DNA of 64,000 nt, taken from positions 65,705 through 129,704 of the forward strand of contig JAICXJ010000001.1 of assembly GCA_025980465.1 (NCBI GenBank). The letters are read 5' to 3'. The translations under genes were made by a program, and so were the position numbers. The first letter of the stretch is position 1; each line of letters begins with the position of its first letter. Positions 4,317-60,946 of this stretch are shown here, piece by piece. The notes below the pieces were generated by a model. That model saw only the letters and a list, made by a program, of their open reading frames with translations, did no database searches and was not told the origin of the DNA. This DNA comes from Frankiales bacterium (GTDB lineage Bacteria > Actinomycetota > Actinomycetes > JAFAQI01).

Positions 4317-6853
<2,537 letters not shown>

Positions 6854-6864
<11 letters not shown>

Positions 6865-10653: not shown

Positions 10654-10677
10654 ACCTCTTATATAAGGAGCGGGCCG

Positions 10678-11853: not shown

Positions 11854-11868
11854 AGGAGCAGACATCTC

Positions 11869-12957: not shown

Positions 12958-12967
12958 GAGACGACGC

Positions 12968-19201: not shown

Positions 19202-19244
19202 GGAAATAGTTTGCCACCCCTGCGGGCGCCCCTCATCAGGGCAT

Positions 19245-19259
19245 CTGACGCGGCGTCAG
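19245..19259. promoter_or_regulatory. Palindromic operator CTGACGCgGCGTCAG (copy 3)
   Basis: Perfect 7-1-7 inverted repeat in the divergent hydrolase/WS-DGAT intergenic region. Confidence 0.55.
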
Positions 19260-19281
19260 AATCGCCGTAGGATCCGCGGTT

Positions 19282-20757
19282 ATGCAGCGACTGGGTGGCT
19301 TGGACTCCGCATTCCTGTATTTCGAGACCCCGACGATGCACATGCATGTCGGCGGTCTGATGCTGGTCGACCCATCGACCGCGCCTAAGCCGTACTCCTT
19401 CGCCGACTATCGCGATTACGTTGCACGACGGCTGCCGCGGGTGCCGGCGTTTCGCCGCAAGCTGGCGACCGTCCCGCTGAACCTCGGAAAGCCGGCGTGG
19501 GTCGAGGACCCCGACTTCGACCTCGACTACCACCTGCATCGGATCACGGTGCCCGCACCGGGTGGTGACCGGGAGACCGCCGACGTCGTCGGCGACATCC
19601 TGTCGCGGCAGATGGACCGAAGCCGGCCGCTGTGGGAGATGTGGGTTGTCGAGGGCCGCGCGGACGGTCTGATCGGCGTCGTCAGCAAGGTGCATCACTC
19701 GTCGATCGACGGCATCACCGGCGCCAACATGATGGCCGAGCTGTTCGACTTCGAGGCTGACGTCGAGAGCGCATCGCCAGCGACGGATGGTTGGGAACCA
19801 GAGCGCAAACCGAGCGACCTGGAAATGGTCGGCCGGGCCTTGGTCGACTGGGCGAAGCGGCCGGCCAGCATCGTGAAGCTGATGCCGGGCACCGTGATGA
19901 GCGTCGGCAAGCTTGCCAACCGCCGGGGTCGCGGCGCCCCGGGAATGCCGGCGCCGTTCAGAGCTCCTCGTACGTCGTTCAACGCGACGGTCACCGCGCA
20001 TCGCACCGTCGCTTACACCGACGTGAAGCTCGACGACATCAAGACGATCAAGAATGTGTTCGGGGTGAAGGTCAACGACGTCGTGATGGCCGTCTGTTCC
20101 GGCGCGCTTCGGAAATACCTCAGCGCTCGCGACGAGCTGCCGGACCGCTCGCTCATCGCCGCGATCCCGATCTCGGTGCACGACCGGAGCGAGGGTGTCG
20201 AGGGCACGACGAAGGTCTCGATCATGTTCTCGTCACTCGCCAGTGACATCGACGATGCGGGGGAGCGGTTGCGCTACATCGCCGAGGTCAACGAGGGCGC
20301 GAAAGAGGACCACGAGCTGGTCGGCGCCAACATGCTGCAGGACTGGGCCGAGCACGCCGCGCCCAACACGTTCTCGCTTGCGGCCCGGATGTATTCCAGC
20401 CTGCGCCTGGCCAATCGCCACCCGGTGGTGCACAACCTGGTCATCTCCAACATCCCTGGGCCGCCGATCCCGTTGTACTTCAACGGCGCGAAGCTGAAGG
20501 TGCTGCACCCGCTCGGTCCGGTGATGGACGGCGCCGGGCTCAACGTCACGGTGCTGTCCAACATGGACTCGATCGGCTTCGGATTCATCGCCTGCAAGGA
20601 GCTCATGCCCGAGCTATGGGATCTCGCCGAGGCCATTCCCGGCGCCGTGGACGAGCTACTTGCGGCGGCGAAGCAGGAAACCGCGCCGAAGCAGAGCACT
20701 AAGAAGCCTGCTGCCTCGACGAAGGCGAGCGCCGCTGCCGCTCGATCCGGCGGCTGA
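19282..20757 (+). CDS. wax-ester synthase / diacylglycerol acyltransferase (WS/DGAT, Tgs)
   Basis: HHSSIDG active-site motif and N-terminal LDSAFLYFE. Confidence 0.85.
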   Translation: MQRLGGLDSAFLYFETPTMHMHVGGLMLVDPSTAPKPYSFADYRDYVARRLPRVPAFRRKLATVPLNLGKPAWVEDPDFDLDYHLHRITVPAPGGDRETADVVGDILSRQMDRSRPLWEMWVVEGRADGLIGVVSKVHHSSIDGITGANMMAELFDFEADVESASPATDGWEPERKPSDLEMVGRALVDWAKRPASIVKLMPGTVMSVGKLANRRGRGAPGMPAPFRAPRTSFNATVTAHRTVAYTDVKLDDIKTIKNVFGVKVNDVVMAVCSGALRKYLSARDELPDRSLIAAIPISVHDRSEGVEGTTKVSIMFSSLASDIDDAGERLRYIAEVNEGAKEDHELVGANMLQDWAEHAAPNTFSLAARMYSSLRLANRHPVVHNLVISNIPGPPIPLYFNGAKLKVLHPLGPVMDGAGLNVTVLSNMDSIGFGFIACKELMPELWDLAEAIPGAVDELLAAAKQETAPKQSTKKPAASTKASAAAARSGG

Positions 20758-21736: not shown

Positions 21737-21750
21737 TGGAACATGTTCTA
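21737..21750. promoter_or_regulatory. KstR operator TGGAACATGTTCTA
   Basis: Perfect match to TnnAACnnGTTnnA, 11 bp upstream of the fadE34-like start. Confidence 0.7.
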
Positions 21751-35674: not shown

Positions 35675-35729
35675 ATTTGGCCTCCGGGCCGACGAGAGGC
35701 GACCCCCGGCGCCGCTACGATCGCGCTCG

Positions 35730-36740
35730 ATGGACTTCACCTTCACGCCCGACCAGCAGGATCTGCGGCGGATGTTGCGCGACATCGCCGAGGATCACTG
35801 CACTCCGGAACGGGTCAGGTCGGCGATCGACTCGAGCGACGGGTACGACGCCGCGCTGTGGCGGCTGGTTTGCGAAGACGTCGGTCTGGTCTCGATTGCG
35901 GTGCCCGAATCCGCTGGGGGAGCGGGCGGATCGTTCGTCGACGCCGCGATCGTCCTGGAGGAGTCCGGCCGTGGCCTGTGGCCGGTGCCGCTGCTGGTGA
36001 ACCTCGTCGTGGCGGCGGTGGCGCCGGGCAGCGGTAGCGCTGCGCTCGTGGTCGGCACGGACGTTGCGGCGAGGGGAAATTCCCTCGCCGGGATCGGGTC
36101 GCACGTCATCGACGGCCACCGGGCGCAACGGTTGGTCGTCGCCACCTCGGGCGGGCTGTGGTCGGTGGCTGCCGATGCACGCGGCGTGTCCGTGGCGGGG
36201 TCTCGAAGCCTCGACCTGACTCGCTGGCTCGCGACCGTCGAGTTCGCTGATGCCGAGGCGGAGCGGATCGGCGACGCCGCTGCCGCGGCACGCGCTGTCG
36301 ACGTGTGTCGAGTCGCGCTCGCCGTCGAGGCAGTCGGTGCGGCGCGGCACTGCCTGGAGGCGACGGTGGACTATCTCAAGACTCGCGAACAGTTCGGCAA
36401 GCCGATCGGGTCGTTCCAGGCGCTCGCTCACCGGGCTGCTGATCTCGCCGTGATGGTGGAGGCAGCCACGTCCACGGCGTACTACGCCGCATGGGCGGTC
36501 GCGGACTCGCCAGCCGAGCTTCCGGTCGTCGCGCCGCTAGCCAAGTCGGTGTGCGCTGACGCGTTCGTCCGCATTGCCGGCGAGACCATCCAGATGCACG
36601 GCGGGATCGGGTTCACCTGGGAGCACGACGCCCACCTCTACTTCAAACGCGCAACCTTGACCCAGGCGCTGCTCGGCGACGCCCATGTCCAGCGACGGCT
36701 CGTCGCGACGCGGGCCGGGATCGCCGAGCCAAGCCGCTAG
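35730..36740 (+). CDS. acyl-CoA dehydrogenase (partner/beta-type subunit)
   Basis: ACAD C-terminal domain conserved (IQMHGGIGFTWEHDAHLYFKRA). N-terminal FAD motifs are degenerate. Confidence 0.75.
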   Translation: MDFTFTPDQQDLRRMLRDIAEDHCTPERVRSAIDSSDGYDAALWRLVCEDVGLVSIAVPESAGGAGGSFVDAAIVLEESGRGLWPVPLLVNLVVAAVAPGSGSAALVVGTDVAARGNSLAGIGSHVIDGHRAQRLVVATSGGLWSVAADARGVSVAGSRSLDLTRWLATVEFADAEAERIGDAAAAARAVDVCRVALAVEAVGAARHCLEATVDYLKTREQFGKPIGSFQALAHRAADLAVMVEAATSTAYYAAWAVADSPAELPVVAPLAKSVCADAFVRIAGETIQMHGGIGFTWEHDAHLYFKRATLTQALLGDAHVQRRLVATRAGIAEPSR

Positions 36741-36850
36741 CAGGTCGCGGCGACAGTTCTGGACCGGTGTCCACGGGGGCAGGCTGTGGATACTTTTCCT
36801 TATTTTCCAATGACTTTTCGCTCGATTCTGGCTGCGTAGGCGGCTATGAT

Positions 36851-36866
36851 TCGAACATACGTTCGA
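36851..36866. promoter_or_regulatory. LexA (SOS) box TCGAACATACGTTCGA
   Basis: Perfect match to the actinobacterial SOS box TCGAAC-N4-GTTCGA, 33 bp upstream of the DUF222-HNH gene. Confidence 0.75.
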
Positions 36867-36898
36867 TCCGCTGGTCGAGGGTGGGTTGACGGAAGTGG

Positions 36899-38116
36899 GT
36901 GAGGGAAGTGCGGGCAGCTCAGGCGGTGCTTGAAGCGGTCAGGGCTGCCTCGGCCGTTGACCCGCATGCCACCCCGGACGAGCCGCTTCTCGACGACCTC
37001 GAAGCCTTGCTGGAAGCTCGCCGTCGCCTCGACGGACATTTGGTGAGACTGCTTCAGTCCGCGCACAGCCGAGACGTGACCGCGGACCTTCGAGGCAAGA
37101 ACACCAAGTGGTGGTTGATCGCCGAGCAGCGGCTTGCCGGCGCCGATGCGTCCCGGCTGATGAAGGTCGCGACCGCGCTGCCCGCCCGCCCGGCCATCGC
37201 GGACGCCCTCGCCGAAGGCCACATCAGTGTCGACCACGCTGCCCCGATCGTTGCGACCGTGGCGAAGCTGCACCCGCAAGACAAGGACCTCTCCGAGAAG
37301 ATTCTTGTCGAGGCCTCGCACGGGTTGGACCCCGACCTGATCCGCAGATTGTGCGTGAAGACCCTCGATGCCGCTGCCGCTGGGGAGAGCGCGGAGGAAC
37401 GACGGGAACGTGTGCATGGCTCCCGGTACCTGAATCTGCTCGACACCTGGCAGGGCATGACTCGCATCGAGGGGATGCTCACGGCCGAGCAAGGTGCGTC
37501 GCTTCGCGCCGTTCTCGAACCACTCGCCCAGCATCTCGGCCCCGAAGACGACCGCAGCGGCGTCCAGCGCCGCGCCGACGCACTCGCTGCGCTTGCCGGC
37601 GCGGCACTCGGCTTCGACAACTTGCTTCCGGACTTCAACGGCGAGCAGCCACATGTCAACGCGGTCATGCAGTACGCCCCGCTCCTCGACGCGCTTCGCC
37701 CATTCGCCGACAAGCCGGTGACCGATGACGGCGGTTTCACCATCAACGGCACCGAGGTGTCGCCTGCGACTGCGCGGATGCTCGCGTGCGACGCGCAGGT
37801 CATCCCGGTGGTGATGCGCGGCGACAGCGAAGTCCTCGACATCGGCCGCGCCAGCCGGGTCTGGCCACGAGCGATCCGCAAAGCGCTGCAGCTTGAGGAC
37901 AACGGCTGCGGCTGGCCTGGCTGCCGACTGCCGTTGTGGGCTTGCCGGATCCATCACCTGGCGTGGTGGGAACGCGATCACGGACCTACCTCGAAGCACA
38001 ACGGCGTGCATCTTTGCCGCTTCCACCATTGGTTGGTCCACAACAAGCCGTGGATGATCTGGCGCAACGAGGCCGGACTAATCGAAGTCGCCCGCGGCCG
38101 GATCAGCCGAACGTGA
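36899..38116 (+). CDS. DUF222 + HNH endonuclease-domain protein (REP13E12-like family)
   Basis: C-terminal HNH motif (CGWPGC...HHLAWWERDHGPTSKHNGVHLCRFHH). N-terminal DUF222. AT-richer leader. Confidence 0.85.
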   Translation: MREVRAAQAVLEAVRAASAVDPHATPDEPLLDDLEALLEARRRLDGHLVRLLQSAHSRDVTADLRGKNTKWWLIAEQRLAGADASRLMKVATALPARPAIADALAEGHISVDHAAPIVATVAKLHPQDKDLSEKILVEASHGLDPDLIRRLCVKTLDAAAAGESAEERRERVHGSRYLNLLDTWQGMTRIEGMLTAEQGASLRAVLEPLAQHLGPEDDRSGVQRRADALAALAGAALGFDNLLPDFNGEQPHVNAVMQYAPLLDALRPFADKPVTDDGGFTINGTEVSPATARMLACDAQVIPVVMRGDSEVLDIGRASRVWPRAIRKALQLEDNGCGWPGCRLPLWACRIHHLAWWERDHGPTSKHNGVHLCRFHHWLVHNKPWMIWRNEAGLIEVARGRISRT

Positions 38117-38210
38117 AGGCTTTGCTCCTTCGAATCGTGCGGACTACAGCTCGCGACACAGCACGCTCACGCGGACGGATGCCCATACGCCGGCGCTAAC
38201 CCCAGGTTCG

Positions 38211-39872
38211 TCAGCGGCGGCGGATTCTTCGGTCGCCGAGCACGATGCTGATCAGCAGGTAGGCGCCTCCGACCGCGGCGATGAGGAAGACGACGAACGC
38301 GAGGGCTGGGTATCCAGCGACCCTCGCCGACGTGTGCACCCGCGTGAGCAGAGCCGCACCGATGATGAGGGCGGCAAGGATCAGCCCGGTCGCCATGCGA
38401 TTCGCGACTCGATGCAGTCCGCGCAGTAACTCGCCCTCGTCGAACGCGTCGACCTTGATCTCGAATCGGCCGTCGCTGAGCACGTCCATCACGCGGTTGA
38501 CTCGGCCGGGCAGCTTCTCGGCGAACTCCTTGGCGTCCATCGCGGCGCTGACCATGCCGGACAGCGTCGGTCGGCTGGCTTGGCCGAGCAGGACCATCCC
38601 GCGCTCGCGCACGACCTCCACCGGTGCGATCTGTGGGTCGAGCTTGCGCGCCACCATGTCGAGGTTCAGCAGCGCCTTGCCCACCATCGACAGCTCCGGC
38701 GGCGGCCGGAGGCCCGCCGCCGCGCACGCGCGGGTCAGGTCGAGTACGACGTGGCCGACGTCGAGCTGTTCCAATGTGTTGTCGCCGGCGCGGTCGACCA
38801 GCTCAGCAATGTCCGCATCGAACGACCGCTCGTCGACCTCCCCGGGCGGGCTCTCGCACATGCTGCGCGCGGACTTCGCGACGTCATCGGATCTGCCATC
38901 GCTCAATGCCACGAGCAGCCGGATCAGCTGGTCTCGAAGCGCCGGTGGCACCCGGGCCACCATGCCGAGGTCGATGATGCCGATCCGGCCGTCGGGAGTG
39001 AGGATGAGGTTTCCGGGATGCGGGTCGGCATGGAAGAAGCCCTCGACCAGGATCTGATCCAGATACAGATCGAACAGCGCGCGGGCCAACCCCGCTCCGT
39101 CGACGTCGAGGAGTGCGACCGGCGAGACGGCGGTGATCTTCTGCCCGGCGATGTAGTCCATCGTGAGCACGCGGCCGCTGGTCAGGTCATCGAACGGCCG
39201 GGGCACGATCAGGGCGGGATAGCCGGCGGCGATCTCGCTCAGTCGGGTGAGGTGGGCGGCCTCGCGGCGGTAGTCGAGCTCACCGATGAGGGACCGGCGA
39301 AACTGGGCCAGGATGTCGGTGAACCCGAGCAGGCTGCCGGTCCGGGTGTGGCGCTCGAGCCGCTCCGCGATCGACTCGAGCACCTCTAGGTCGTTGAAGA
39401 CCTGCTGCCGGACGCCCGGTCGCTGCACCTTGACGGCGACCCGGGCGCCGTCGCGGGTTACCGCACGATGCACCTGCCCGATCGACGCGGTCGCAAGCGG
39501 CAGCTCGTCGAACTCCGGGAAGATGCGCGGCAGCCGCACGCACAGCTCTTCTTCGACGGTCTGTCTGATCTCCTCGAAGGGGACCGGCTCAAGCGAGTCC
39601 TGCAGCCGGGCGAGCGCGTCGAGATAGGGGGCCGGCAGCAGATCCGCGCGGGTCGAGAGCAGCTGACCGAGCTTGATGAACGTCGGTCCGAGCCGTTCCA
39701 GATCAGCGGCGAGCTCGTCGGCCTCAGCGCGGGTGGCCGGGGTTTCGGCGTCCCGCGCGAGCGTCGTGTCGAGTCCTGCCTGGCGGACGAGATCAGAACG
39801 GCCGTGCTTGATCAGCAGGCGTCCGATCTCGGCGTAGCGCCGCAGATGCGTCGGCGCGGAGGACGCAGTCAT
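38211..39872 (-). CDS. ABC1/UbiB/AarF-family atypical kinase with C-terminal TM segments
   Basis: ABC1 kinase motifs (ASIGQVHRA, HADPHPGN, IIDLG). Confidence 0.85.
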   Translation of the reverse strand: MTASSAPTHLRRYAEIGRLLIKHGRSDLVRQAGLDTTLARDAETPATRAEADELAADLERLGPTFIKLGQLLSTRADLLPAPYLDALARLQDSLEPVPFEEIRQTVEEELCVRLPRIFPEFDELPLATASIGQVHRAVTRDGARVAVKVQRPGVRQQVFNDLEVLESIAERLERHTRTGSLLGFTDILAQFRRSLIGELDYRREAAHLTRLSEIAAGYPALIVPRPFDDLTSGRVLTMDYIAGQKITAVSPVALLDVDGAGLARALFDLYLDQILVEGFFHADPHPGNLILTPDGRIGIIDLGMVARVPPALRDQLIRLLVALSDGRSDDVAKSARSMCESPPGEVDERSFDADIAELVDRAGDNTLEQLDVGHVVLDLTRACAAAGLRPPPELSMVGKALLNLDMVARKLDPQIAPVEVVRERGMVLLGQASRPTLSGMVSAAMDAKEFAEKLPGRVNRVMDVLSDGRFEIKVDAFDEGELLRGLHRVANRMATGLILAALIIGAALLTRVHTSARVAGYPALAFVVFLIAAVGGAYLLISIVLGDRRIRRR

Positions 39873-40017
39873 GCCAGGCACATTCCCCGGCTGACCGGCA
39901 ATTAGCCGTGACCGATCTTCTCATGACGCAGGCACGGTCGCGGCGGCGCTCCGACCAACTTCAAGGCGCGCGCCAGGCAGCGCCCCCGCTCGTGATCTTG
40001 CGCCTACGCTTCGGACG

Positions 40018-40320
40018 ATGAGTACGTATGTCTTCCGGCTCAAAGCCCCTCGGCCGACCTTCGCTCTCGACATGACGGACGAGGAGCGGGAGATCATGGG
40101 TCGCCACGCGGCTCATTGGCGCCCGCGCGTCGAGTCCGGCGAGATGGTGGTGTTCGGCCCGGTGCTCGACAGCACCGGATCGTGGGGGCTCGGGGTCATC
40201 GAAGCCGAGGACGAAGACGAGCTACGCGCATTCGCCGCGGCCGATCCGGTCGTCACAACCAAGACGGCCGAGATCGAGCTGGGCAAGATGCTGGCCGGGT
40301 TCGTGCGCCCGCGCCAATAG
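40018..40320 (+). CDS. YciI-like protein
   Basis: About 100 aa, Dabb/YciI fold signature. Confidence 0.6.
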   Translation: MSTYVFRLKAPRPTFALDMTDEEREIMGRHAAHWRPRVESGEMVVFGPVLDSTGSWGLGVIEAEDEDELRAFAAADPVVTTKTAEIELGKMLAGFVRPRQ

Positions 40321-40364
40321 CCGGCACCACGTCGACGGCTTTCTCGACCAGCTGACCAACCGGC

Positions 40365-40973
40365 TCAGCGTTTCGGCACCTTCGGCCCGGTGACGCCCCA
40401 GTAGATGAGCCGGATCATCGCTTCGCGGACCTCGGCGAAGGAGATGTCCCACGCCTCGAAGCCCATCTGATGCCCGGCCATCTGAGGCAGCATCCCGATC
40501 AGCGCGCCCGCCATCGCCATCGGCTCGACCTCGGCGGCGTCGCCCTGCACCGTCGTGATCTCCGCGGCCAGAGCTTTCGTCATGCCGTTGAGGATCAGGG
40601 TGCGGAGGTGGCGGAACCGCTTGTCGCCCTCGGTCGAGAGCAGGTCGACAACGCGCAGTGTCGGCCGGTGGGTTCGGTAGAAGTCCAGGAAGCCGTCGAC
40701 CAGCGCTTCGGCGCTGTCGACCCCGGCCGGACCGCTCCACGCTCGCTGCGAGATCAACTCGACGAGCCGCTGGCCTTCCTCGACGGTCTGTTCGGCCACT
40801 GCCAGAAGGACGGTCTCGAGATCGACGAAGTACTGGTAGAACGTCGCCGGCGAGGTGCCGGCGGCACGGGTGATGTCGGTGACCTTCAGGTCGCGGTACG
40901 ACGAGGACCCGAGCAGGCCGATCGTGCATTCGACGAGCCGTTGGCGGGTGGCCAGACCGCGACGGCCGGGCAC
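40365..40973 (-). CDS. TetR-family transcriptional regulator (not KstR; candidate binder of the CTGACG-N3-CGTCAG motif)
   Basis: HTH region LKVTDITRAAGTSPATFYQYFVDLETVLL. GTG at 40973 chosen; the ORF track extends to 41627, and an alternative ATG at 41090 overlaps the SDR stop. Confidence 0.7.
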   Translation of the reverse strand: MPGRRGLATRQRLVECTIGLLGSSSYRDLKVTDITRAAGTSPATFYQYFVDLETVLLAVAEQTVEEGQRLVELISQRAWSGPAGVDSAEALVDGFLDFYRTHRPTLRVVDLLSTEGDKRFRHLRTLILNGMTKALAAEITTVQGDAAEVEPMAMAGALIGMLPQMAGHQMGFEAWDISFAEVREAMIRLIYWGVTGPKVPKR

Positions 40974-41017
40974 GCGGCCGTCGACCGCGCGCAGCGCAGC
41001 AACGTCGTGGGGAGTTC

Positions 41018-41032
41018 TTGACGCCCCGTCAG
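41018..41032. promoter_or_regulatory. Palindromic operator TTGACGCcCCGTCAG (copy 6) upstream of the TetR gene
   Basis: Lies 45-59 bp upstream of the proposed TetR GTG start. Identical to the copy at 5546. Confidence 0.55.
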
Positions 41033-41086
41033 ATTTGGCCACGATCGCGATCGTAACGGGTGGTCCCGCCAGGCATGTGATGACGC

Positions 41087-41836
41087 TCATTCGTGAGCCG
41101 CGACGGACAGGAACGGCGGCGGTTCGCCACCGCCGTGGACCGCAAGGTCGGCACCGGTGACGAACCCGGCCTCCGGCGAAGCGAGGAACAGGCAGGCGCC
41201 GAGCACATCGGCCGGCCGTGCCATCCGCTTCATCGGTATCGTCTGCCCGACCCGAGCGATCCCGGCCTCGTCGCCGTAGAACAGCGCAGCCTGCTCGGTC
41301 TCGAGGTAGCCGACGGTCACCATGTTCACCCTCACCGCGGGCGCCCACTCCATCGCCAGCGATCGGGTGAGGTTGCCCAGCCCCGCCTTTGCCGCGCCGT
41401 ACGCCGCACTCCCGGGTGAGGGCCGGGCGCCGGACAGGCTTCCGATGTTGATGATCACGCCGCCGCCGTCCTGGTCCTTCATGACGGCATACGCGGCCTG
41501 GGCGACGTAGAACGGCGCGAGCAGGTTGAGCGCGACGATTTTCTGGATCAGATTGGGGGATGCCTCGGCAGCGGGAGTCGGGGGCGTCCCGCCCGCGTTG
41601 TTGATCACGACGTCGAGCCGGCCCCATCGTTGCAACGCAGCGTCGACGACGGTCGAAGCCGACTCCGGATCGCGCAGATCCGCTGCGACGAAGTCATCGA
41701 CCGCCGGCTCCGGCGCCGATCGCGCGCAGATCAGCACCTGTGCACCGGCATCGCGGAAGCCTTGCGCCAGGCCACGTCCGAGCCCCTTGGTGCCGCCGGT
41801 GACGAGGGCGACTCGGCCGGTCAGGTCGACACTCAC
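41087..41836 (-). CDS. SDR-family oxidoreductase (Rv3549c/IpdF-neighbourhood type)
   Basis: TGGTKGLG and YGAAK motifs. Divergent from the echA20-like gene. Confidence 0.8.
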   Translation of the reverse strand: MSVDLTGRVALVTGGTKGLGRGLAQGFRDAGAQVLICARSAPEPAVDDFVAADLRDPESASTVVDAALQRWGRLDVVINNAGGTPPTPAAEASPNLIQKIVALNLLAPFYVAQAAYAVMKDQDGGGVIINIGSLSGARPSPGSAAYGAAKAGLGNLTRSLAMEWAPAVRVNMVTVGYLETEQAALFYGDEAGIARVGQTIPMKRMARPADVLGACLFLASPEAGFVTGADLAVHGGGEPPPFLSVAAHE

Positions 41837-41858
41837 CCGTATATGGTGACACCGAAAT

Positions 41859-41873
41859 CTGACGGTGTGTCAG
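41859..41873. promoter_or_regulatory. Palindromic operator CTGACGGtGTGTCAG (copy 7, degenerate right arm)
   Basis: In the divergent SDR / echA20-like intergenic region. Confidence 0.45.
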
Positions 41874-41907
41874 ATCGGCGCGAACGGGCCGGATCAGGAA
41901 GGCATTC

Positions 41908-42675
41908 GTGAGCATCACCACCTCGGTCAGCGAGCACGTCGCCGAGATCGTCGTTGACGCCCCGCCGGTCAACGCGCTGACGGTTGCCGGCTGGTTCTCA
42001 CTTGCCGAGGCGCTGATCGCCGCCGGCGAGAATCCCGACGTCCACGTCGTGGTGCTGGCGGCCGAAGGCAAGGGCTTCAACGCCGGTGTCGACATCAAGG
42101 AGATGCAGTCGACCGAGGGTTTCACCGCGCTCGTCGGCGCCAACCGAGGTTGTGCAGCAGCGTTCGCAGCCGTGTACGACTGCGCGGTGCCGGTGATCGC
42201 GGCGGTCCACGGCTTCTGCCTCGGCGGCGGCATCGGGCTCGTCGGCAACGCCGACGTGGTCATCGCCTCGGATGACGCGACCTTCGGCTTGCCGGAGGTG
42301 AAGCAGGGCGCGCTCGGCGCGGCCACCCATCTCGCTCGGCTGGTGCCGCAGCATCGGATGCGGCAGATGGTCTACACCGCAGAACGCGCAACCGCGCAGG
42401 AGCTGGCGGCGTACGGGTCGGTGTTGAAGGTCGTGCGGCGCGACGAGCTCCGGTCGGCCGCGCGTGAGGTCGCACTGCAGATCGCCGCGATAAACCCGGT
42501 CGTGATCCGCGCCGCGAAGGCGTCGCTCAACGGAATCGACCCGGTCGATGTCAAGCGGTCGTACCGTTTCGAACAAGGCTTCACCTTCGAGCTCAACCTC
42601 ACCGGCGTCTCCGACGAGGCGCGCGACTCGTTCGTCGAGCGGCGCGACGGCTGGGAGAAGACTCCCGATGCCTGA
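41908..42675 (+). CDS. echA20: enoyl-CoA hydratase EchA20-like (HIP degradation)
   Basis: Crotonase fold. Immediately followed by the ipdAB CoA-transferase subunits, as in Mtb Rv3550-Rv3552. Confidence 0.75.
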   Translation: MSITTSVSEHVAEIVVDAPPVNALTVAGWFSLAEALIAAGENPDVHVVVLAAEGKGFNAGVDIKEMQSTEGFTALVGANRGCAAAFAAVYDCAVPVIAAVHGFCLGGGIGLVGNADVVIASDDATFGLPEVKQGALGAATHLARLVPQHRMRQMVYTAERATAQELAAYGSVLKVVRRDELRSAAREVALQIAAINPVVIRAAKASLNGIDPVDVKRSYRFEQGFTFELNLTGVSDEARDSFVERRDGWEKTPDA

Positions 42676-43549
42676 CAAGCGAATGACCGTCGAGGACATT
42701 GTCGGTGAGCTGCGGGACGGCATGACGATCGGAATCGGCGGCTGGGGTTCCCGCCGCAAACCGATGGCGGTGGTCCGCGCCATGCTGCGATCGTCGCTGA
42801 AAGACCTGACCGTCGTGTCGTACGGCGGACCCGACGTCGGGCTGCTCTGCGCGGCCCGGATGGTGCGCAAGGTCGTCTTCGCGTTTGTCTCGCTCGACTC
42901 CATCGCGCTCGAGCCGCATTTCCGGATCGCGAAGCAAAACGGCGCCGTCGCCACCCTCGAGCTGGACGAGGGGATGTTCCTGCTCGGGTTGCAGGCGGCG
43001 GCCTGGCGGGTTCCGTTCCTGCCGACCCGAGTCGGCCTCGGATCGGACGCGCTCGAGAAGCAGGATGAGATCCGCACCGTCACCTCGCCGTACGAATCTG
43101 CCGATGGTGGGCCGGGCGAGGAGTTCGTCGCGATGCCGGCTCTGCCGCTCGACGTCGCGCTCGTCCATCAGAACCGCGCCGACATCGGTGGCAACGCGCA
43201 GTTCCTCGGCCCGGACCTGTACTTCGACGACCTGATGTGCCAGGCGGCGGCGACGTCGTTCGTCACGTGCGAGCAGCTCGTCGACACCGCCGACTTCGCG
43301 AAGCTCGGCTCCCCCCACACGCAGCGGATCAGCCGGCTGTGGACCGATGGCGTCGCCGAGACTCCCAACGGCGCGCACTTCACGTCATGTACGCCGGACT
43401 ACGAGCGCGACGAGGCATTTCAGAAGGAGTACGCCGCAGCCGCTGCATCACCGGAGGCCTGGCAGCAGTGGCGCGCCAACTGGATCGACATCTCGGAGGC
43501 CGACTACCAGGCTCGGTTGGATTCACGACGAGGGCTGGCGGCGCGGTAA
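42668..43549 (+). CDS. ipdA: CoA-transferase alpha subunit IpdA
   Basis: 3-oxoacid CoA-transferase A-subunit-like. 8-nt overlap with echA20. Confidence 0.8.
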   Translation: MPDKRMTVEDIVGELRDGMTIGIGGWGSRRKPMAVVRAMLRSSLKDLTVVSYGGPDVGLLCAARMVRKVVFAFVSLDSIALEPHFRIAKQNGAVATLELDEGMFLLGLQAAAWRVPFLPTRVGLGSDALEKQDEIRTVTSPYESADGGPGEEFVAMPALPLDVALVHQNRADIGGNAQFLGPDLYFDDLMCQAAATSFVTCEQLVDTADFAKLGSPHTQRISRLWTDGVAETPNGAHFTSCTPDYERDEAFQKEYAAAAASPEAWQQWRANWIDISEADYQARLDSRRGLAAR

Positions 43550-44280
43550 TGACGACTCGGGCGGATGTCTGCGTGATCGCGGTCGCGGAGTGTTTTCGCG
43601 GTGACGGCGAGATCGTCGCGAACCCGATCGGCACGATCCCGCGGATCGGTGGCCTGCTGGCCCGGCGGTCGTTCGAACCTGACTTGGTCATGACCGACGG
43701 CGAGGCGATGTTCACCGACGCGGCAGGTGCGATCGAGGCGTGGAACCCCTACCGCACGATGTTCGACGTCGTCTGGTCCGGTCGACGTCACGTGATGATG
43801 GGCGGCTCGCAGCTCGACCCGATGGGCAATCACAACTTCGCCGCGATCGGCGACATGAAGCGCCCGAAGTCGCAGCTTCTCGGCTTCCGCGGCGCGCCCG
43901 GCAACACCGTGAACAACGTGACGTCGTACTGGGTCCCCAACCATTCGCCGCGGGTGTTCGTCGAGACGGTCGACGTCGTCACCGGGGTGGGCTACGACCG
44001 GGCGGCCGCGGCCGGGCCCGCAGCGACCCGCTTCCACGCACTCCGCCGGGTGGTGACGAACCTGTGCGTGCTCGACTTCGAGACCCCAGATCACCGGATG
44101 CGCCTTCGGTCGGTGCATCCGGGGGTGGCGGTCGAGGAGGTCGTCGCAGCCACCGGTTTCGCGCTCGCCGTGCCGGCCGATGTCCCGACCACCCGCGAGC
44201 CGACCGAGGCTGAGTTCGTGATCCTGGCCGAACTCGATCCGAAGAACACTCGCGGCAAAGAGGTCCCCGAGCCCGAATGA
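43549..44280 (+). CDS. ipdB: CoA-transferase beta subunit IpdB
   Basis: Beta-subunit-like. Start MTTRADV overlaps the ipdA stop. Confidence 0.8.
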   Translation: MTTRADVCVIAVAECFRGDGEIVANPIGTIPRIGGLLARRSFEPDLVMTDGEAMFTDAAGAIEAWNPYRTMFDVVWSGRRHVMMGGSQLDPMGNHNFAAIGDMKRPKSQLLGFRGAPGNTVNNVTSYWVPNHSPRVFVETVDVVTGVGYDRAAAAGPAATRFHALRRVVTNLCVLDFETPDHRMRLRSVHPGVAVEEVVAATGFALAVPADVPTTREPTEAEFVILAELDPKNTRGKEVPEPE

Positions 44281-45341
44281 CTCATCCCGCGCTGTCCACG
44301 CGGTTCACCGACCTGGTCGGTGTCCGTTACCCGATCGTGCAGACCGGGATGGGCTGGGTCGCCACCCCGCAGCTCGCGGCAGCGACATCCGCCGCGGGCG
44401 GCCTCGGCATCCTCGCCGCCGCGACCATGACGTACGACGAGCTGGCGACCGCGATCCGCGACGTCCGGTCTCGTACCGACGCGCCGTTCGGCGTGAACAT
44501 GCGGGCCGACCAGCCCGACGTCGCCAACCGGATCGAGCTGCTGATCCGCGAGGGCGTGCGGGTCGCGTCGTTCGCGATGGCGCCGAAGCAGGACCTCATC
44601 ACCCGGTTGCATGACGGCGGCGTCCTCGTGATGCCGTCGATCGGTGCGAAGCGCCACGCCGAGAAGGTCGCGGCCTGGGGCGTCGACGCGGTCCTGGTGC
44701 AGGGCGGCGAGGGCGGCGGCCACACCGGCGCCGTACCCACCTCACTGCTGCTCCCGCAGGTGGTTGATGCCGTCGGCGCCGACGTCCCGGTCGTTGCCGC
44801 GGGGGGCTACTTCGACGGGCGCGGACTGGTGGCAGCGCTCGCCTACGGCGCAACCGGCATCGCAATGGGCACGAGGTTCCTGCTGACCAGCGACTCACCG
44901 GTGCCGCAACAGGTCAAGGAGCTCTACCTGTCGAAGTCGGTCACCGACACGGTCGTGACGAAGCAGGTCGACGGCGTACCGCACCGGGTACTGCGCAGCG
45001 AGCTCGTCGAGACCCTCGAAGACGCCTCCACCCCTCGTCGGTTCGCCGGGGCCGCCCGTAACGCGATGCGCTTCGGCAAGGACGCCGGACTGTCCTGGCG
45101 CGACATGGTCCGCGAGGGGCTCGCCATGCGCAAGACCCAGGAGCTGTCGTGGAGCCAGGTGATGATGGCCGGCAACACCCCGATGTTGTTGCGTGCCGCG
45201 ATGGTGGATGGTCGCGTCGACCTCGGTGTGATGGCGAGTGGTCAGGTTGTCGGCGTCATCGATGATCTGCCGAGCTGTGCCGATCTCATCGACCGCATCA
45301 TCGCTGAGGCGGAGAAGGTGCTGACCGGCCTCGTCGGCTGA
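44277..45341 (+). CDS. ipdC: nitronate-monooxygenase-family FMN enoyl reductase (IpdC-like)
   Basis: NMO/2-nitropropane-dioxygenase fold. ATGA overlap with ipdB. Confidence 0.8.
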   Translation: MTHPALSTRFTDLVGVRYPIVQTGMGWVATPQLAAATSAAGGLGILAAATMTYDELATAIRDVRSRTDAPFGVNMRADQPDVANRIELLIREGVRVASFAMAPKQDLITRLHDGGVLVMPSIGAKRHAEKVAAWGVDAVLVQGGEGGGHTGAVPTSLLLPQVVDAVGADVPVVAAGGYFDGRGLVAALAYGATGIAMGTRFLLTSDSPVPQQVKELYLSKSVTDTVVTKQVDGVPHRVLRSELVETLEDASTPRRFAGAARNAMRFGKDAGLSWRDMVREGLAMRKTQELSWSQVMMAGNTPMLLRAAMVDGRVDLGVMASGQVVGVIDDLPSCADLIDRIIAEAEKVLTGLVG

Positions 45342-56977: not shown

Positions 56978-59900
56978 TTGGCGCAGGTGAGCGGAAGCCC
57001 GGGCGGGCCGGTCGGGGGATCGCGTCGGGGCGGGCCCCGCGTCGCGGGCTACCGGCGCAGTCGGGCGGTGGCGGTAGCGGCCTCGCTGGCGGTGGTCGCC
57101 GGCGCGCTCGCCGGAGGGGCCGCGGTGGCCTCGCCGGCCGCCGCTCACGCTCGGGCCTACGCAGCGGTGGGCCGGGCACCCCGGGTACCGGCCGGCGCGC
57201 GGATGATCGGCGCGACCGACCCCGGCCGGGTCATCTCCGCAGCGATCGCCCTCAAGCCACGTCATCCGCAGGCGCTCGCCGCCGCCGCGGCGGCGGTGTC
57301 CAGTCCGCGATCGCCGAGCTTCCATCACTTCCTGGCCAAAGGCGACTTCGCCGCTGCGTACGGCGCCTCGCCGGAAACGATCAAGGCGGTCTCCGCCGCC
57401 CTTACCGCCTCCCATCTCACCGTCACGAACGTCGCCCGGGACAACCTGCTGGTGCGCTTTCGCGGCACGGTCGGGGCGGCCGAGCGCGCCTTCCGTACGC
57501 GGGTCGCCGACTATCGGCTGCGCTCCGGGCGGATCGGTCGGGAGACGACCTCCGCTGCGTCGCTGCCGGCGTCGATCGCCGGTCAGGTCGAGGCGGTCGT
57601 CGGTCTCGACACGTTGCTGACGCCGACCGCCGCGCTGCGGCACGGCACCCACCCGGCGAGTCAGCAGGCAAGCGGGCCCACCCACCCGCTCGCGAACGTC
57701 ACGGCCGGCCCGCATGCGTGCGGCGCGGCGACCGATGTCGCGAAACAGCTGGGAGGTCTCACCGACGAGCAGATCGCTAATGCCTACGGGGTCACCAACC
57801 TGTACCAGGCGGGCGACGTTGCGAGCGGACAGCACATCGGCGTGTTCGAACTCGAGCCATTTTCCACGGCCGACCTGACCGCCTTCGACCGTTGCTTCTT
57901 CCCGTCGCAGTACACCGCGATGCTCGGCCGCACCCATGTCGTGACCGTCGACGGCGGCCCCGGCACCGGCCCGGGCAGCGGTGAGTCGATCCTCGACATC
58001 GAGGACGTTGAGGGGATCGCGCCGGGCGCTTCTGTCGATGTCTACGAGGCACCGAACACCTCCGTGGGCTCGCTCGACGAGTACGCCCAGATGATCAACG
58101 ACGATCAGGACAGCGTCATCTCGACGAGCTGGGGCGTGTGTGAGCTCGACGAATCACAGCTGGAGCCGGGATACATCAACATCGAGAACGAGCTGTTCGA
58201 GCAGGCTGCGCTCCAGGGTCAGACCGTTTTCTCCTCCTCCGGCGACTCGGGAGCTGACACCTGCTCCAACCAGTCCCCGACGCCGGTCCAGCCGGATCTG
58301 TCGGTGGGCGACCCGTCGAGCCAGCCCTTCGTCGTCTCGGTCGGCGGTACGACGATGAGTAACGCGGGTGTCCCGCCGACGGAGCGGGTGTGGGACGACG
58401 GCAGCGTCGCCGGCAGCACCGGCGGCGGCGTCTCGGGCGTGTGGGGGGCGCCGTCGTGGCAGGTCGCTGTCGACAGCGCCGACCGCAGCGCGGTGACTCA
58501 GGCGGTCAACGACGGACTGACCCAGTGCGCCGAGGCGGCGAGCGGCGGGCTGTGCCGACAGCTGCCGGACGTCTCCGCGGCAGCAGACGAGTACACCGGC
58601 AGCATCACCTTGTACGCCTCCAGCTTCGGTGGCTGGAGCACGATCGGTGGCACCTCGTCGGCGACCCCGTTGTGGGCCGCGATGACGGCAGAGATCAACG
58701 CCTCGTCCCAGTGCGCCGGCTCGACGCAGCCGCACGGCGGTGTCGGCTTCCTTAGCCCGTCGCTCTACGCGATCGCCGCCGTACCGAGTGAGTACTCGGC
58801 ATCGTTCAACGACGTCACCGCCGGCAACAACGACCAGTACGACGTCAACGGTGGCCGCGACTACGCCGCGGCAAAGGGTTACGACATGGCCAGTGGCCTC
58901 GGCACCCCGATTCTGGCCCACCCCGGCGGCCGGGCCGGCCTGGCCAACTATCTCTGCACCCTCGGCGCTGCATCCGTCCGACCGGCGATCACCTCGGTGA
59001 GCCCGGACGTGATCCCGGTCCATCCGACGACCCCGAACCTGGTCATCACCGGGACCGGCTTCAGTGGTGTCACGGCGGTGTCGGTCGGCGGCTACGACGT
59101 TCCGAGGTCGCACATCACCGTGACCAACGCAGGCAAGGAGATCGACGTATCGCCGGTTCCCACCGGCCCCGAGGTCGGCACCGGGAGCGCCGGACCGCAG
59201 GACGGGTCCGGCCGCCATCTCGTGATGGTCACCGGCTCGAACGGCATGACGTCGATCCCGACCGCGAGCACATCGGTGCTCTACGTCGACACGAACGGCG
59301 GCACGATCCCGTCGGTGTCCGGCACGTCCCCGTTCGGTGGCCCGATCGACGCGCCGAGCATGTCGGTGACGGTGTACGGCTCCGGCTTCAACTCCGATGG
59401 CGGGGTGACCGGGGTGACCGTCGGCGGCGTCAGCGCACCGTCTTTCACGGTGCGGTCGGACACCCAGATGTCGGTCACGATCCCGCCGTACGTGCCTGCC
59501 CTGACCGTGTGCGCTCCCGGCGACGACCCCACCAATGATGTCTGTCAGGCGCAGGTCGTGGTCGGCAATGCCAACGGTGACAGCGAGGTCGCATCCATCC
59601 TGCCGCCGTTGACCGGGACGCCGTTCGTCGGGCAGTTCGGCGGCCCGCCTCCGCAGTGCGTCCGGAACTCGACGTGCGAGGCCACGCCGGCAACGACCGA
59701 GTACGACTATCTGGTGCGACCGCATATCGACACCTTCAGCCCGGACTTCGTCAGTGAAAATCCGGGCAACGCGTCGACCGGTACGATCACCGGCCGCGGG
59801 TTTGACTCCCTCGGCTTTGCCTGGGTCGACATCGGCTCGCCGTCCGACCCAAACTCCGCCGACATCAACCTGGTGTCGATCACGCCGACCAAGGTCCAGT

Positions 59901-60946
59901 TCACCGTCTCTGGTCACAGCGCGACGAGGCTGCCGGCTACCCGAAAACTGTTCGTACAGACCATCCAGGGACTGTCCAACCAGTCGCGGGTCACCTACGC
60001 CGGGATACCGAAGGTGACCGATGTGAGTCCGAACGCAGGCCCCGACAGCGGCGGTACGCCGGTGACCATCAGTGGCCAAGGATTCTTTGGTGTCGACGCC
60101 GCCGATGGCGGGGCGATCGTGTACGTCTATCCGGACTTCGGTCTAGGCAGCTCGCAGCTGTCCGGATACGCGGCAAGCTCGGCCGGGACCTCGATCAGCG
60201 AAACCACGCCTGCCAACAACCCGGGCCAGTTCGTTGTCGAGGTCTGCACCGTCACGGCATGCTCGTCGCCACCACTCAAGCAGTCTGCCTTCAAGGCGAT
60301 CCTGTTCGACTTCTTCGATCCCGGCGATCCGGTGGTGAAGTCGATGTCGGCCCATACCGGGCCTGCTGGCGGCGGCACTCACGTGCGCATCCACGGGTCG
60401 AACCTCTCCGACGTCACCTCGGTGACTTTCGGGGGCCGCAAGGCGAACGCCACGAACCCGGTGCAGCTGCTGACCAACGGCAGCAACACCGAGATCGATG
60501 CCATTGCGCCGCCCGGCCGGCCGGGGACCACCGTCGATGTCATCGTCCGGACGGCGGAAAGCGATCACGGTGGTCACGCGAGCGCGAAGACCCGGGCCGA
60601 CCGCTTCCACTATGTCCGCAGCCGGCCGTCGCCGCCGCGCACGATCACCGTGGTGCGCCACGGCACCTCACCGACCGTTCATTGGTCAGCACCGCTGTCG
60701 AACGGCGGCTTCAAGATCCTTCGTTACCGCGTCACCGCGCACGCCTTGAAGAACAGCGACAAGAAGGGCGCGAAGTCGCCGAAGAACACGGTAGTCGTGG
60801 CTAGCGGTCGCGCCCGAAAGGCGACGCTGAGGGGTCTCAGGGCCGGCTGGTTCTACGAGTTCAAGGTGCAGGCGATCAACCAGAAGGGTGCCGGACGGGC
60901 CGGCCGTAACGGCAAGATCTATCTGATCTCACAACCGGCGCGATAG
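56978..60946 (+). CDS. secreted S53 (sedolisin/kumamolisin-type) peptidase with multiple IPT/TIG domains and C-terminal fibronectin-III domain
   Basis: Signal peptide (AVAVAASLAVVAGALA), pro-kumamolisin-like prodomain, catalytic Ser in GGTSSATP, repeated IPT-like units and a terminal FN3 (WSAPLSNGGFKILRYRV...FYEFKVQA). 1322 aa. Confidence 0.75.
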   Translation: MAQVSGSPGGPVGGSRRGGPRVAGYRRSRAVAVAASLAVVAGALAGGAAVASPAAAHARAYAAVGRAPRVPAGARMIGATDPGRVISAAIALKPRHPQALAAAAAAVSSPRSPSFHHFLAKGDFAAAYGASPETIKAVSAALTASHLTVTNVARDNLLVRFRGTVGAAERAFRTRVADYRLRSGRIGRETTSAASLPASIAGQVEAVVGLDTLLTPTAALRHGTHPASQQASGPTHPLANVTAGPHACGAATDVAKQLGGLTDEQIANAYGVTNLYQAGDVASGQHIGVFELEPFSTADLTAFDRCFFPSQYTAMLGRTHVVTVDGGPGTGPGSGESILDIEDVEGIAPGASVDVYEAPNTSVGSLDEYAQMINDDQDSVISTSWGVCELDESQLEPGYINIENELFEQAALQGQTVFSSSGDSGADTCSNQSPTPVQPDLSVGDPSSQPFVVSVGGTTMSNAGVPPTERVWDDGSVAGSTGGGVSGVWGAPSWQVAVDSADRSAVTQAVNDGLTQCAEAASGGLCRQLPDVSAAADEYTGSITLYASSFGGWSTIGGTSSATPLWAAMTAEINASSQCAGSTQPHGGVGFLSPSLYAIAAVPSEYSASFNDVTAGNNDQYDVNGGRDYAAAKGYDMASGLGTPILAHPGGRAGLANYLCTLGAASVRPAITSVSPDVIPVHPTTPNLVITGTGFSGVTAVSVGGYDVPRSHITVTNAGKEIDVSPVPTGPEVGTGSAGPQDGSGRHLVMVTGSNGMTSIPTASTSVLYVDTNGGTIPSVSGTSPFGGPIDAPSMSVTVYGSGFNSDGGVTGVTVGGVSAPSFTVRSDTQMSVTIPPYVPALTVCAPGDDPTNDVCQAQVVVGNANGDSEVASILPPLTGTPFVGQFGGPPPQCVRNSTCEATPATTEYDYLVRPHIDTFSPDFVSENPGNASTGTITGRGFDSLGFAWVDIGSPSDPNSADINLVSITPTKVQFTVSGHSATRLPATRKLFVQTIQGLSNQSRVTYAGIPKVTDVSPNAGPDSGGTPVTISGQGFFGVDAADGGAIVYVYPDFGLGSSQLSGYAASSAGTSISETTPANNPGQFVVEVCTVTACSSPPLKQSAFKAILFDFFDPGDPVVKSMSAHTGPAGGGTHVRIHGSNLSDVTSVTFGGRKANATNPVQLLTNGSNTEIDAIAPPGRPGTTVDVIVRTAESDHGGHASAKTRADRFHYVRSRPSPPRTITVVRHGTSPTVHWSAPLSNGGFKILRYRVTAHALKNSDKKGAKSPKNTVVVASGRARKATLRGLRAGWFYEFKVQAINQKGAGRAGRNGKIYLISQPAR

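Follow-up and report, generated by a model that had tools for sequence, protein, structure and literature searches.

KstR2 and its ligand HIP-CoA are regarded as the conserved switch by which actinobacteria control the final stages of steroid catabolism, and ipdAB serves as a virulence and vaccine target. In Mycobacterium tuberculosis, kstR2 (Rv3557c) is located a few genes from echA20 (Rv3550) (PMC3068626), and IpdB of RHA1 carries a glycine, Gly57β, the catalytic Glu of class I CoA-transferases being absent (PMC5380842). The 64-kb stretch of DNA analysed here (the window) belongs to an uncultured Mycobacteriales/Frankiales-type soil actinobacterium with KstR-controlled cholesterol side-chain genes. 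Its echA20-ipdABC cluster is probably, though by no means certainly, a genuine HIP operon that has been wired into the broad lipid-catabolism regulon of a TetR_C_38 regulator in place of the KstR2/HIP-CoA circuit.

The preliminary description of this DNA placed an SDR gene divergent from an echA20-ipdA-ipdB-ipdC series with overlapping start and stop codons at 41087-45341 and likened this order to the mycobacterial block. Both points were borne out by family matches (Table 1) and by the gene junctions read directly, and the order agrees with Table 1 of PMC5380842 and Figure 1 of PMC3068626. The ipdA ATG at 42668 lies within echA20 by 8 nt, ipdA and ipdB meet at TAATG, and ipdB and ipdC meet at ATGA. 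The SDR gene occupies the position of Rv3549c, and this synteny was retained in the related loci L004-L007. The EchA20-type crotonase scored 407 bits against the PRK07938 equivalog model (cut-off 260). Matches of IpdA were at E 3e-93 to 6CO6_A (RHA1 IpdA) and 2.6e-87 to M. tuberculosis 6CON_A, and IpdB matched M. tuberculosis 6CON at E 1.2e-65; the matches to characterised IpdAB amounted to 315 bits over 278 aligned residues for IpdA and 260 bits over 238 for IpdB. As in the RHA1 protein, IpdB contains Gly where the CoA-transferase catalytic Glu would be (query tdGeam versus 6CO6_B tdGeal, chain residue 57). IpdC scored 247 bits against TIGR03151 FabK, which is under the cut-off of that model, and an identical-sequence look-up gave no database record of the exact IpdC protein. 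The matches to solved IpdAB, Gly57β, the families of the EchA20-type, SDR and NMO proteins, the order of the genes and their coupled start and stop codons identify the block as a genuine echA20-ipdABC steroid C/D-ring (HIP-pathway) module of predicted enzyme activity.

Table 1. Features of the echA20-ipdABC locus, numbered from the first nucleotide of the window.
Feature	Position	Strand	Basis or remark
TetR-family regulator (Pfam TetR_C_38)	40365..41042	-	PF19352, 154 bits, cut-off 23.9
Putative autoregulatory operator, core TTGACGCCCCGTCAG at 41018-41032	41016..41034	.	covers TetR codons 3-9, approximately
Candidate -10 box TACGAT	41050..41055	-	7 nt upstream of TetR GTG; leaderless-type, function inferred
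SDR oxidoreductase	41087..41836	-	NCBIfam PRK07856, 365 bits; Pfam adh_short
Candidate -10 box TATGGT, echA20-ipdABC operon	41842..41847	+	conserved pattern, function inferred
Operator ATCTGACGGTGTGTCAGAT, core at 41859-41873	41857..41875	.	divergent SDR/echA20 promoter
EchA20-type crotonase (ring-D hydrolase homologue)	41908..42675	+	NCBIfam PRK07938 equivalog; Pfam ECH_1
IpdA (alpha subunit, COCHEA-CoA hydrolase)	42668..43549	+	6CO6_A and 6CON_A matches
IpdB (beta subunit)	43549..44280	+	E 2e-76 to 6CO6_B
IpdC (NMO/FabK-like flavoenzyme)	44277..45341	+	Pfam NMO, 284 bits

The divergent ipd promoter was said to carry a CTGACG-N3-CGTCAG motif, and the 71-bp SDR/echA20 intergenic region indeed contains ATCTGACGGTGTGTCAGAT, the core copy of which, CTGACGGTGTGTCAG, has one mismatch and is the sole palindrome in that spacer. 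A copy was kept at the equivalent position in L004-L008, with two mismatches in L008. A further claim, that the same motif precedes the TetR gene, held only in part: a copy with one mismatch in its core, TTGACGCCCCGTCAG, is present at the 5' end of the gene, but most likely overlaps codons 3-9 rather than preceding the coding sequence. The consensus operator measured approximately 19 bp, A(T)CTGACG-N3-CGTCAG(A)T. Seven sites at up to one mismatch were counted in the window against 0.69 expected, a number reached in none of 100 shuffles; six of the seven were intergenic though the window is 92% coding, and none of 179 permuted palindromes had more than one intergenic site. The seven sites were scattered across 40 kb.

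Conserved sequences of promoter type were noted next to both operators. A conserved TANNNT box immediately precedes ATCTGACGGTGTGTCAGAT; here CGTATAT(G/C)GT was conserved in L004, L006 and L007 and TATTGT was found in L008, the TATGGT box being absent from L005. Upstream of the TetR GTG, TTACGATCGCG(A/G)(T/C)C-GTG was near-identical between the window and L004, while L005 retained CTACGATCGCGACC-GTG and L006 only TTACGATC. Both -10 boxes are candidates chosen solely by pattern and conservation; a scan for E. coli-type promoters and terminators found nothing, as expected at this GC content. Public annotation places the TetR start at ATG 41090. The likely start is GTG 41042, which would make the gene leaderless; homologue N-termini begin M/V-A-K/R-S-D, and residues 1-34 of a 241-residue TetR call had pLDDT values below 50.

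Comparison of the adjacent TetR with KstR2 showed that they are different proteins. Alignment by BLASTP was confined to 60 residues of the N-terminal DNA-binding (HTH) domain (28% identity, 17/60), neither KstR2 nor KstR was among PDB sequence matches to the TetR at E ≤ 1, and KstR2 was not among its best 50 Foldseek matches. The AF2 model had an all-helical TetR fold (pLDDT 80), and PF00440 (TetR HTH) was precomputed on homologues of the regulator. EthR ranked first among Foldseek neighbours, which also included the acyl-CoA-binding regulators FasR, FadR and DesT, this likeness being generic (TM approximately 0.7-0.8, identity 18-19%). The gene was also considered as KstR (Rv3574), but by sequence this identity belongs instead to the gene at 14585-15190.

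As stated in the preliminary description, no KstR2 gene or box was in view. The KstR2 box ANCAAGNNCTTGNT had no match at up to one mismatch in the whole 64-kb window, no CAAGNNCTTG core occurred within 40900-42000, and the KstR2 operator AnCAAGnnCTTGnT was absent from the SDR/echA20 spacers of L004-L008. A perfect KstR2 box at 6828 in L008 was located inside an acyl-CoA synthetase-like ORF (…TSKVLV…) and was dismissed as a chance match. In a tblastn search with validated M. tuberculosis KstR2, no hits at E ≤ 1e-3 were obtained in the window (64 of the contig's 152 kb) or in L001-L008, the fetched flanks of these relatives extending up to 10 kb on each side of the regulator. These absences, and the location of M. 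tuberculosis kstR2 so near echA20, argue against the leading alternative, according to which a kstR2 elsewhere in the genome runs fadD3, fadE30-33, fadA6 and ipdF while a global lipid TetR forms an added or alternative layer at ipd and replaces nothing. This alternative is rather unlikely but has substance: the search of this genome covered 64 kb, and the classical steroid regulators were not generally lost, since the window retains KstR and its boxes. A KstR homologue is encoded at 14585-15190 (132 bits, E 1e-37 to 5AQC), perfect KstR boxes (TnnAACnnGTTnnA operator) occur at 5513 and 21737, and FadA5 (549 bits to 4UBV) and CYP125 (383 bits to 5DQN) are also present. The CTGACG-N3-CGTCAG palindrome adjoins KstR boxes at fadA5/cyp125 and at a fused-ACAD promoter, a coexistence which suggests that layered control is normal here.

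A second alternative takes the cluster for a HIP-module paralogue opening the rings of another alicyclic CoA thioester rather than those of steroids, in which case control by a general lipid TetR would be unremarkable. Similarity to IpdAB, at 315 and 260 bits, is strong yet far from identity, R. equi is known to carry ipdAB twice (PMC5380842), genes for the degradation of rings A and B (kshA, kstD, hsa) were not seen in the window, and the cluster has one SDR gene versus two in mycobacteria and no fdxB after ipdC. Set against these points are the mycobacterial gene order, the diagnostic Gly57β, an EchA20-type equivalog match far over the cut-off and the occurrence of bona fide FadA5, CYP125 and KstR on the same contig, 26-37 kb from the ipd cluster, all of which render a non-steroid role improbable. 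The ACAD beside the regulator was considered as a member of FadE30-33, but PDB and NCBIfam comparisons indicated only moderate kinship to the steroid-type ChsE4 and Tcur3483.

Gene order and operator were conserved in five related MAGs (L004-L008 compared), and the palindrome was found at the 5' end of the regulator gene itself in loci from Frankiales-like MAGs, Acidimicrobiia and Streptomyces. The loci of TetR orthologues in Streptomyces, Acidimicrobiia and Frankiaceae were without ipd genes, and in these the palindrome fronts acyl-CoA ligase, thiolase-like and ACAD genes, with 15-27 fold enrichment of the motif over permuted controls. CTGACG-N3-CGTCAG is proposed here, and not taken from a published definition, as an operator shared by the TetR_C_38 family, given that it occurs both beside the gene for the regulator itself and beside acyl-CoA genes. 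The HTH is near-invariant across the family, and its peptides DLKVTDIT and SPATFYQY were conserved across 588 relatives. That the palindrome is bound by some other regulator and lies beside this TetR by coincidence is highly improbable, for while seven sites over 40 kb mean that adjacency alone proves little, the site recurs at the 5' end of the TetR gene in three actinobacterial groups that are deeply separated, flanks of up to 10 kb on each side of TetR orthologues are strongly enriched in the motif, a 6-N3-6 palindrome is typical of a TetR dimer, and the HTH is near-invariant.

Regulator and operator are ancient, widespread in Actinomycetota and apparently uncharacterised; a literature search for the literal motif gave nothing useful, and no characterised TetR_C_38 member was found. 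A plasmid tblastn search returned distant Streptomyces paralogues only. The suggestion that a different repressor controls HIP catabolism in this lineage survives insofar as the neighbouring TetR is not KstR2 and its palindrome is conserved, whereas the picture of a lineage-specific HIP repressor does not. Because the same operator elsewhere serves general acyl-CoA and lipid genes with no ipd genes nearby, HIP-CoA is not an obvious ligand.

In the reading favoured here, the ipd operon joined a broad lipid regulon, a conclusion drawn from the age, the wide distribution and the many acyl-CoA and lipid targets of regulator and operator. The adjacent TetR_C_38 regulator would repress echA20-ipdABC by binding the approximately 19-bp palindrome as a dimer. 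The site in the ipd promoter, just downstream of the candidate -10 box at about +5 to +25, would be in a roadblock position, and the other site, which covers the opening codons of the putatively leaderless TetR gene, would provide autoregulation. The regulator would control many acyl-CoA and lipid genes, as the seven sites in the window alone suggest, and would most likely be released by a ligand of acyl-CoA type. Both ipd-proximal copies of the palindrome are imperfect, which counts against this reading.

If the reading is correct, a different operator at the same promoter would be a clear example of one regulator replacing another while the promoter stays fixed, and sterol ring breakdown could be tied to general lipid metabolism. 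In Streptomyces, and in Acidimicrobiia from marine and soil settings, the pair also seems to point to a lipid regulon that is large and easy to predict, with a bearing on precursor-supply engineering. A bolder version is possible but doubtful, namely that TetR_C_38 and its operator define a pan-actinobacterial acyl-CoA/lipid regulon that displaced KstR2 in situ at the ipd promoter and overlays KstR-controlled cholesterol promoters; general lipid status, rather than HIP-CoA, would then govern the breakdown of steroid rings C and D.

Compared with the mycobacterial HIP block, the locus has the same enzyme families, order and translational coupling, an IpdB likewise without the transferase Glu, and a short divergent SDR spacer (71 bp versus 60 bp in M. 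smegmatis) containing one palindromic TetR operator. The operators differ, being CTGACG-N3-CGTCAG here and AnCAAGnnCTTGnT in mycobacteria, and a single SDR gene, followed by the TetR_C_38 regulator, takes the place of two. Unlike in mycobacteria, no kstR2, fdxB, fadA6, fadD3 or fadE30 was identifiable nearby by gene order. Regulon logic is shared with FdmR (Rv0238) of mycobacteria, FadR of Thermus, Bacillus and Sulfolobus, DesT and FasR, in that a single TetR has numerous palindromic sites ahead of genes for acyl-CoA dehydrogenase, thiolase, ligase, lipase and WS/DGAT. Deletion of fdmR in M. neoaurum raised expression of sterol side-chain genes (PMC13520905). FdmR, a candidate identity for the TetR, was not adopted, and 20 sampled TetR_C_38 clusters (Streptomyces, Acidimicrobiia and one Nocardia) included no member from Mycobacterium. 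SAV_7471 (GAGAACN3CGTTCTC) and XNR_0706 were rejected as matches since their published operators differ from the present palindrome (PMC11584518). With KstR2 (Rv3557c; PDB 4W97, 4W1U and 2IBD; HIP-CoA-responsive) the regulator shares TetR-family membership, position at the same promoter, a palindromic operator and, presumably, autoregulation, and differs from it in operator and in having no ligand-domain similarity; in contrast with KstR2, TetR_C_38 regulators also occur in Streptomyces that do not degrade steroids and are predicted to act at many general acyl-CoA genes.

Genes were called by GC3 scoring and annotated with Pfam and NCBIfam in a window with a G+C content of 68%, the proteins of which had nearest relatives labelled Mycobacteriales, Frankiales or Frankiaceae MAGs. 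Annotation and the junctions read on the sequence bore out the gene order given in the preliminary description, namely an SDR gene divergent from echA20, ipdA, ipdB and ipdC with overlapping start and stop codons. The ipdA start (ATG, 42668) lies 8 nt inside echA20, and the ipdA/ipdB and ipdB/ipdC junctions are TAATG and ATGA, respectively. Both CoA_trans proteins matched IpdAB, the COCHEA-CoA hydrolase, as crystallised from R. jostii RHA1 (6CO6; E 3e-93 and 2e-76) and M. tuberculosis (6CON; E 2.6e-87 and 1.2e-65), and alignment indicated that IpdB keeps Gly57beta, the residue found where true CoA transferases have their catalytic glutamate (PMC5380842). Judged from sequence, one diagnostic residue and gene order, the module belongs to the echA20-ipdABC family.

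Features of the echA20-ipdABC region, its palindrome sites and the surrounding lipid genes
Feature	Position	Strand	Remarks
TetR regulator	40365-41042	-	Pfam TetR_C_38, 154 bits
SDR	41087-41836	-	NCBIfam PRK07856, 365 bits
EchA20-type crotonase	41908-42675	+	passes PRK07938 equivalog, 407 bits (cut-off 260)
CoA_trans protein, IpdA	42668-43549	+	matches crystallised IpdA
CoA_trans protein, IpdB	43549-44280	+	matches crystallised IpdB
NMO/FabK-like flavoprotein (IpdC)	44277-45341	+	
Palindrome	1373		before luciferase-like monooxygenase
Palindrome	5546		before fadA5/cyp125 divergent pair
Palindrome	19245		before lipase/WS/DGAT divergent pair
Palindrome	21660		before alpha/beta hydrolase/724-aa fused ACAD divergent pair
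Palindrome	35660		before ACAD divergent from ACAD-CoA-transferase III-MaoC-MaoC-ACAD
Palindrome	41018-41032		at TetR gene itself
Palindrome CTGACGGTGTGTCAG	41859-41873		before SDR/echA20-ipdABC, in 71-bp divergent spacer
KstR box TAAAACACGTTCTA, perfect	5513-5526		fadA5/cyp125 promoter
KstR box TGGAACATGTTCTA, perfect	21737-21750		hydrolase/fused-ACAD promoter
Palindrome GAGAACACGTTCTC	5574-5587		fadA5/cyp125 promoter
Cholesterol side-chain cluster	4317-14569		
Thiolase, FadA5 homologue	4317-5480		549 bits to 4UBV
P450, CYP125	5623-6864		383 bits to M. smegmatis CYP125 (5DQN), 530 bits to reconstructed CYP125 ancestor
KstR homologue	14585-15190	+	E 1e-37 to 5AQC and to M. tuberculosis and M. 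smegmatis KstR structures

The box of KstR2, AnCAAGnnCTTGnT, has been defined and shown to bind this repressor in the Rv3549c/Rv3550 spacer (PMC3068626). No sequence within one mismatch of this box occurs in the 64-kb window, and the box was absent from the divergent spacers of the five closest related loci (L004-L008); the lone perfect box in L008 falls within a coding region. The sole palindrome of the SDR/echA20 spacer is a copy of CTGACG-N3-CGTCAG that extends to ATCTGAC-N5-GTCAGAT, and the divergent promoter was thus correctly described as carrying this motif instead of a KstR2 box. With M. tuberculosis KstR2 (100% identical to PDB 4W1U and 4W97) as query, tblastn found nothing in the window or in related loci L001-L008, and BLASTP against the TetR protein encoded downstream of the SDR aligned just 60 N-terminal residues at 28% identity, so that this protein is not KstR2. 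Neither KstR2 nor KstR appeared among its matches to all PDB sequences at E ≤ 1 (top match Rv0078, E 2.6e-5). Its AlphaFold model (pLDDT 80) has the standard TetR fold, with EthR, FasR, Sulfolobus FadR and DesT as nearest solved structures and KstR2 not among the best 50 structural matches. The two remaining TetR genes of the window encode the KstR homologue and a TetR_C_11 protein. From the box scan, these sequence, tblastn and structure comparisons and the identities of the other two TetR genes, the earlier statement that no KstR2 gene or box is in view holds for the 64-kb window.

Public annotation gives the TetR protein 241 aa (40365-41090, minus strand) from an ATG at 41090 that overlaps the SDR stop. 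This start is probably an over-extension of a gene that begins with GTG at 41042, since homologue N-termini read M/V-A-K/R-S-D, residues 1-34 of the long form are unstructured in the AlphaFold model and a -10 box is conserved. The DNA 5' of the GTG, TTACGATCGCGATC-GTG, is nearly identical in L004 (TTACGATCGCGGCC-GTG), while L005 retains CTACGATCGCGACC-GTG and L006 only TTACGATC. The TANNNT box lies 7 nt from the GTG, and leaderless genes of actinobacteria usually have such a box at approximately this distance from the start codon. Given a leaderless start, the operator copy would therefore span approximately +8 to +25 and overlap about codons 3-9; the motif said to precede the TetR gene is present at its 5' end but most probably within the coding sequence. 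The string TACGATCGCG lies before both the TetR gene (41040-41055) and the ACAD gene starting at 35730 (35716-35732), in each case with 3-4 nt between it and the start codon, which suggests a leaderless-promoter design common to the two.

With at most one mismatch allowed, the window holds 7 copies of the palindrome, whereas dinucleotide shuffling gave an expectation of 0.69 and none of 100 shuffles reached 7. As a real-sequence control, 179 other half-site permutations in the same 6-N3-6 palindromic format were counted in the window; CGATCG and GTCGAC were as frequent as CTGACG or more so, with every site coding. Although 92% of the window is coding, six of the seven CTGACG sites fall between genes, versus at most one intergenic site for every control; the seventh covers the opening codons of the TetR gene.

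A scan of the TetR alignment against 185,579 species genomes gave 588 relatives, and 80 loci were kept. In all five of the closest (L004-L008; TetR identity 62-83%), the order ipdC-ipdB-ipdA-echA20 divergent from (SDR)-TetR is kept and the spacer carries the palindrome (CTGACGACCCATCAG, CTGACGCCACATCAG, CTGACGCCACGTCAG, CTGACGGAGTGTCAG and CTGACTCTCTATCAG), which in four lies a few bases 3' of a conserved CGTATATGGT or TATTGT box, fitting TANNNT. Orthologues of 46-55% identity were noted in many Streptomyces, in Acidimicrobiia/Microthrixaceae/Iamia MAGs and in Frankiaceae, with no ipd genes near any of them. The palindrome was 15-27 times commoner at orthologue loci than permuted controls, none of which reached the observed count (Streptomyces, 78 versus a control mean of 2.9; Acidimicrobiia and others, 35 versus 2.1), and intergenic copies precede genes for acyl-CoA ligase, Ltp-type thiolase, ACAD, luciferase-like and similar proteins. 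In Acidimicrobiia, copies at the regulator's own 5' end fall between about -105 and -17 relative to the match start. In Streptomyces (L017-L083) the invariant CTGACGGCATGACAG, a two-mismatch variant containing ATG, lies about 20 nt before the match start, and paired sites 24-27 bp apart recur before acyl-CoA ligase and thiolase-like operons. Even in L080, a distant MAG, the ACAD-CoAT-MaoC-MaoC-ACAD operon adjoins the regulator with the motif in between. A position matrix from 272 sites reads A-(T/C)-CTGACG-NNN-CGTCAG-(A/G)-T, and the HTH is near-invariant across the family. Motif enrichment, own-gene copies and the near-invariant HTH are thus strong comparative evidence that the TetR_C_38 regulator binds the palindrome, and on such comparisons the pair is ancient and not HIP-specific. 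No characterised TetR_C_38 member and no published report of the palindrome as an operator were found in open-access text. Some relatives (e.g., P0135, P0140 and P0144), with 435-480 residues and two matched stretches, are predicted tandem double-TetR proteins, reminiscent of Mce3R architecture.

In the cholesterol side-chain cluster of the window, fadA5 is divergent from cyp125, and next come genes for two DUF35/ChsH2-C OB-fold proteins, two Ltp-type thiolase-like proteins, an SDR, two ACADs and a PRK07798-type acyl-CoA synthetase, with the KstR homologue ending the cyp125-...-fadD operon. Each KstR box, as well as GAGAACACGTTCTC, has a CTGACG-N3-CGTCAG copy within about 80 bp, which suggests dual control of these promoters by KstR and the TetR_C_38 regulator; the KstR circuit is therefore kept, and the new regulator would overlie it. 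Since this circuit and the side-chain genes share the window, the ipd genes likely serve steroid catabolism. Ring A/B degradation genes were not in view within the 64-kb window. Directly 3' of kstR (15239-17948), genes for a UbiE/MenG-type methyltransferase, an unknown 242-aa protein and an FAD-binding geranylgeranyl-reductase-like protein may concern menaquinone modification. A lipase/esterase (BD-FAE) gene and a gene for a WS/DGAT wax-ester/triacylglycerol synthase (17945-20757) are oriented divergently with a perfect palindrome between, and storage-lipid turnover seems part of the same regulon. Between the TetR gene and the ACAD operon, 36741-40364 encodes a DUF222 protein (probably HNH-type), a UbiB/ABC1 kinase and a YCII protein; this segment looks like an insertion because ACAD genes follow the TetR gene within 1-2 kb in L004 and L006. 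The very large ORF at 56978-60946 (plus strand; about 1250-1320 aa), with a pro-kumamolisin (sedolisin) activation domain, three TIG domains and one fn3 domain, bears no relation to the ipd finding.

We infer binding, repression, ligand and promoter assignments. A TetR_C_38 dimer would bind the palindrome 3' of the echA20-ipdABC -10 box and block transcription, the spacer site might also affect the divergent SDR-TetR transcript, and the second site, in the first codons of the regulator's own leaderless gene, would confer negative autoregulation. Release of the dimer by an acyl-CoA-type ligand is suggested by regulon make-up and by generic structural neighbours only, and HIP-CoA is disfavoured as the ancestral ligand because the family is widespread in organisms without ipd genes. 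The proposal that a different repressor controls HIP catabolism is partly supported in so far as the adjacent TetR is not KstR2 and the palindrome is kept in L004-L008, but the regulator is not specific to HIP. A possibly more interesting by-product is a putative, widespread and apparently unstudied actinobacterial lipid regulon. Compared with the mycobacterial KstR2 regulon, the window module lacks both regulatory features, operator and nearby kstR2 gene. The mode of action of the regulator is presumably similar to that of FdmR, FadR and DesT, global acyl-CoA-responsive TetR repressors.
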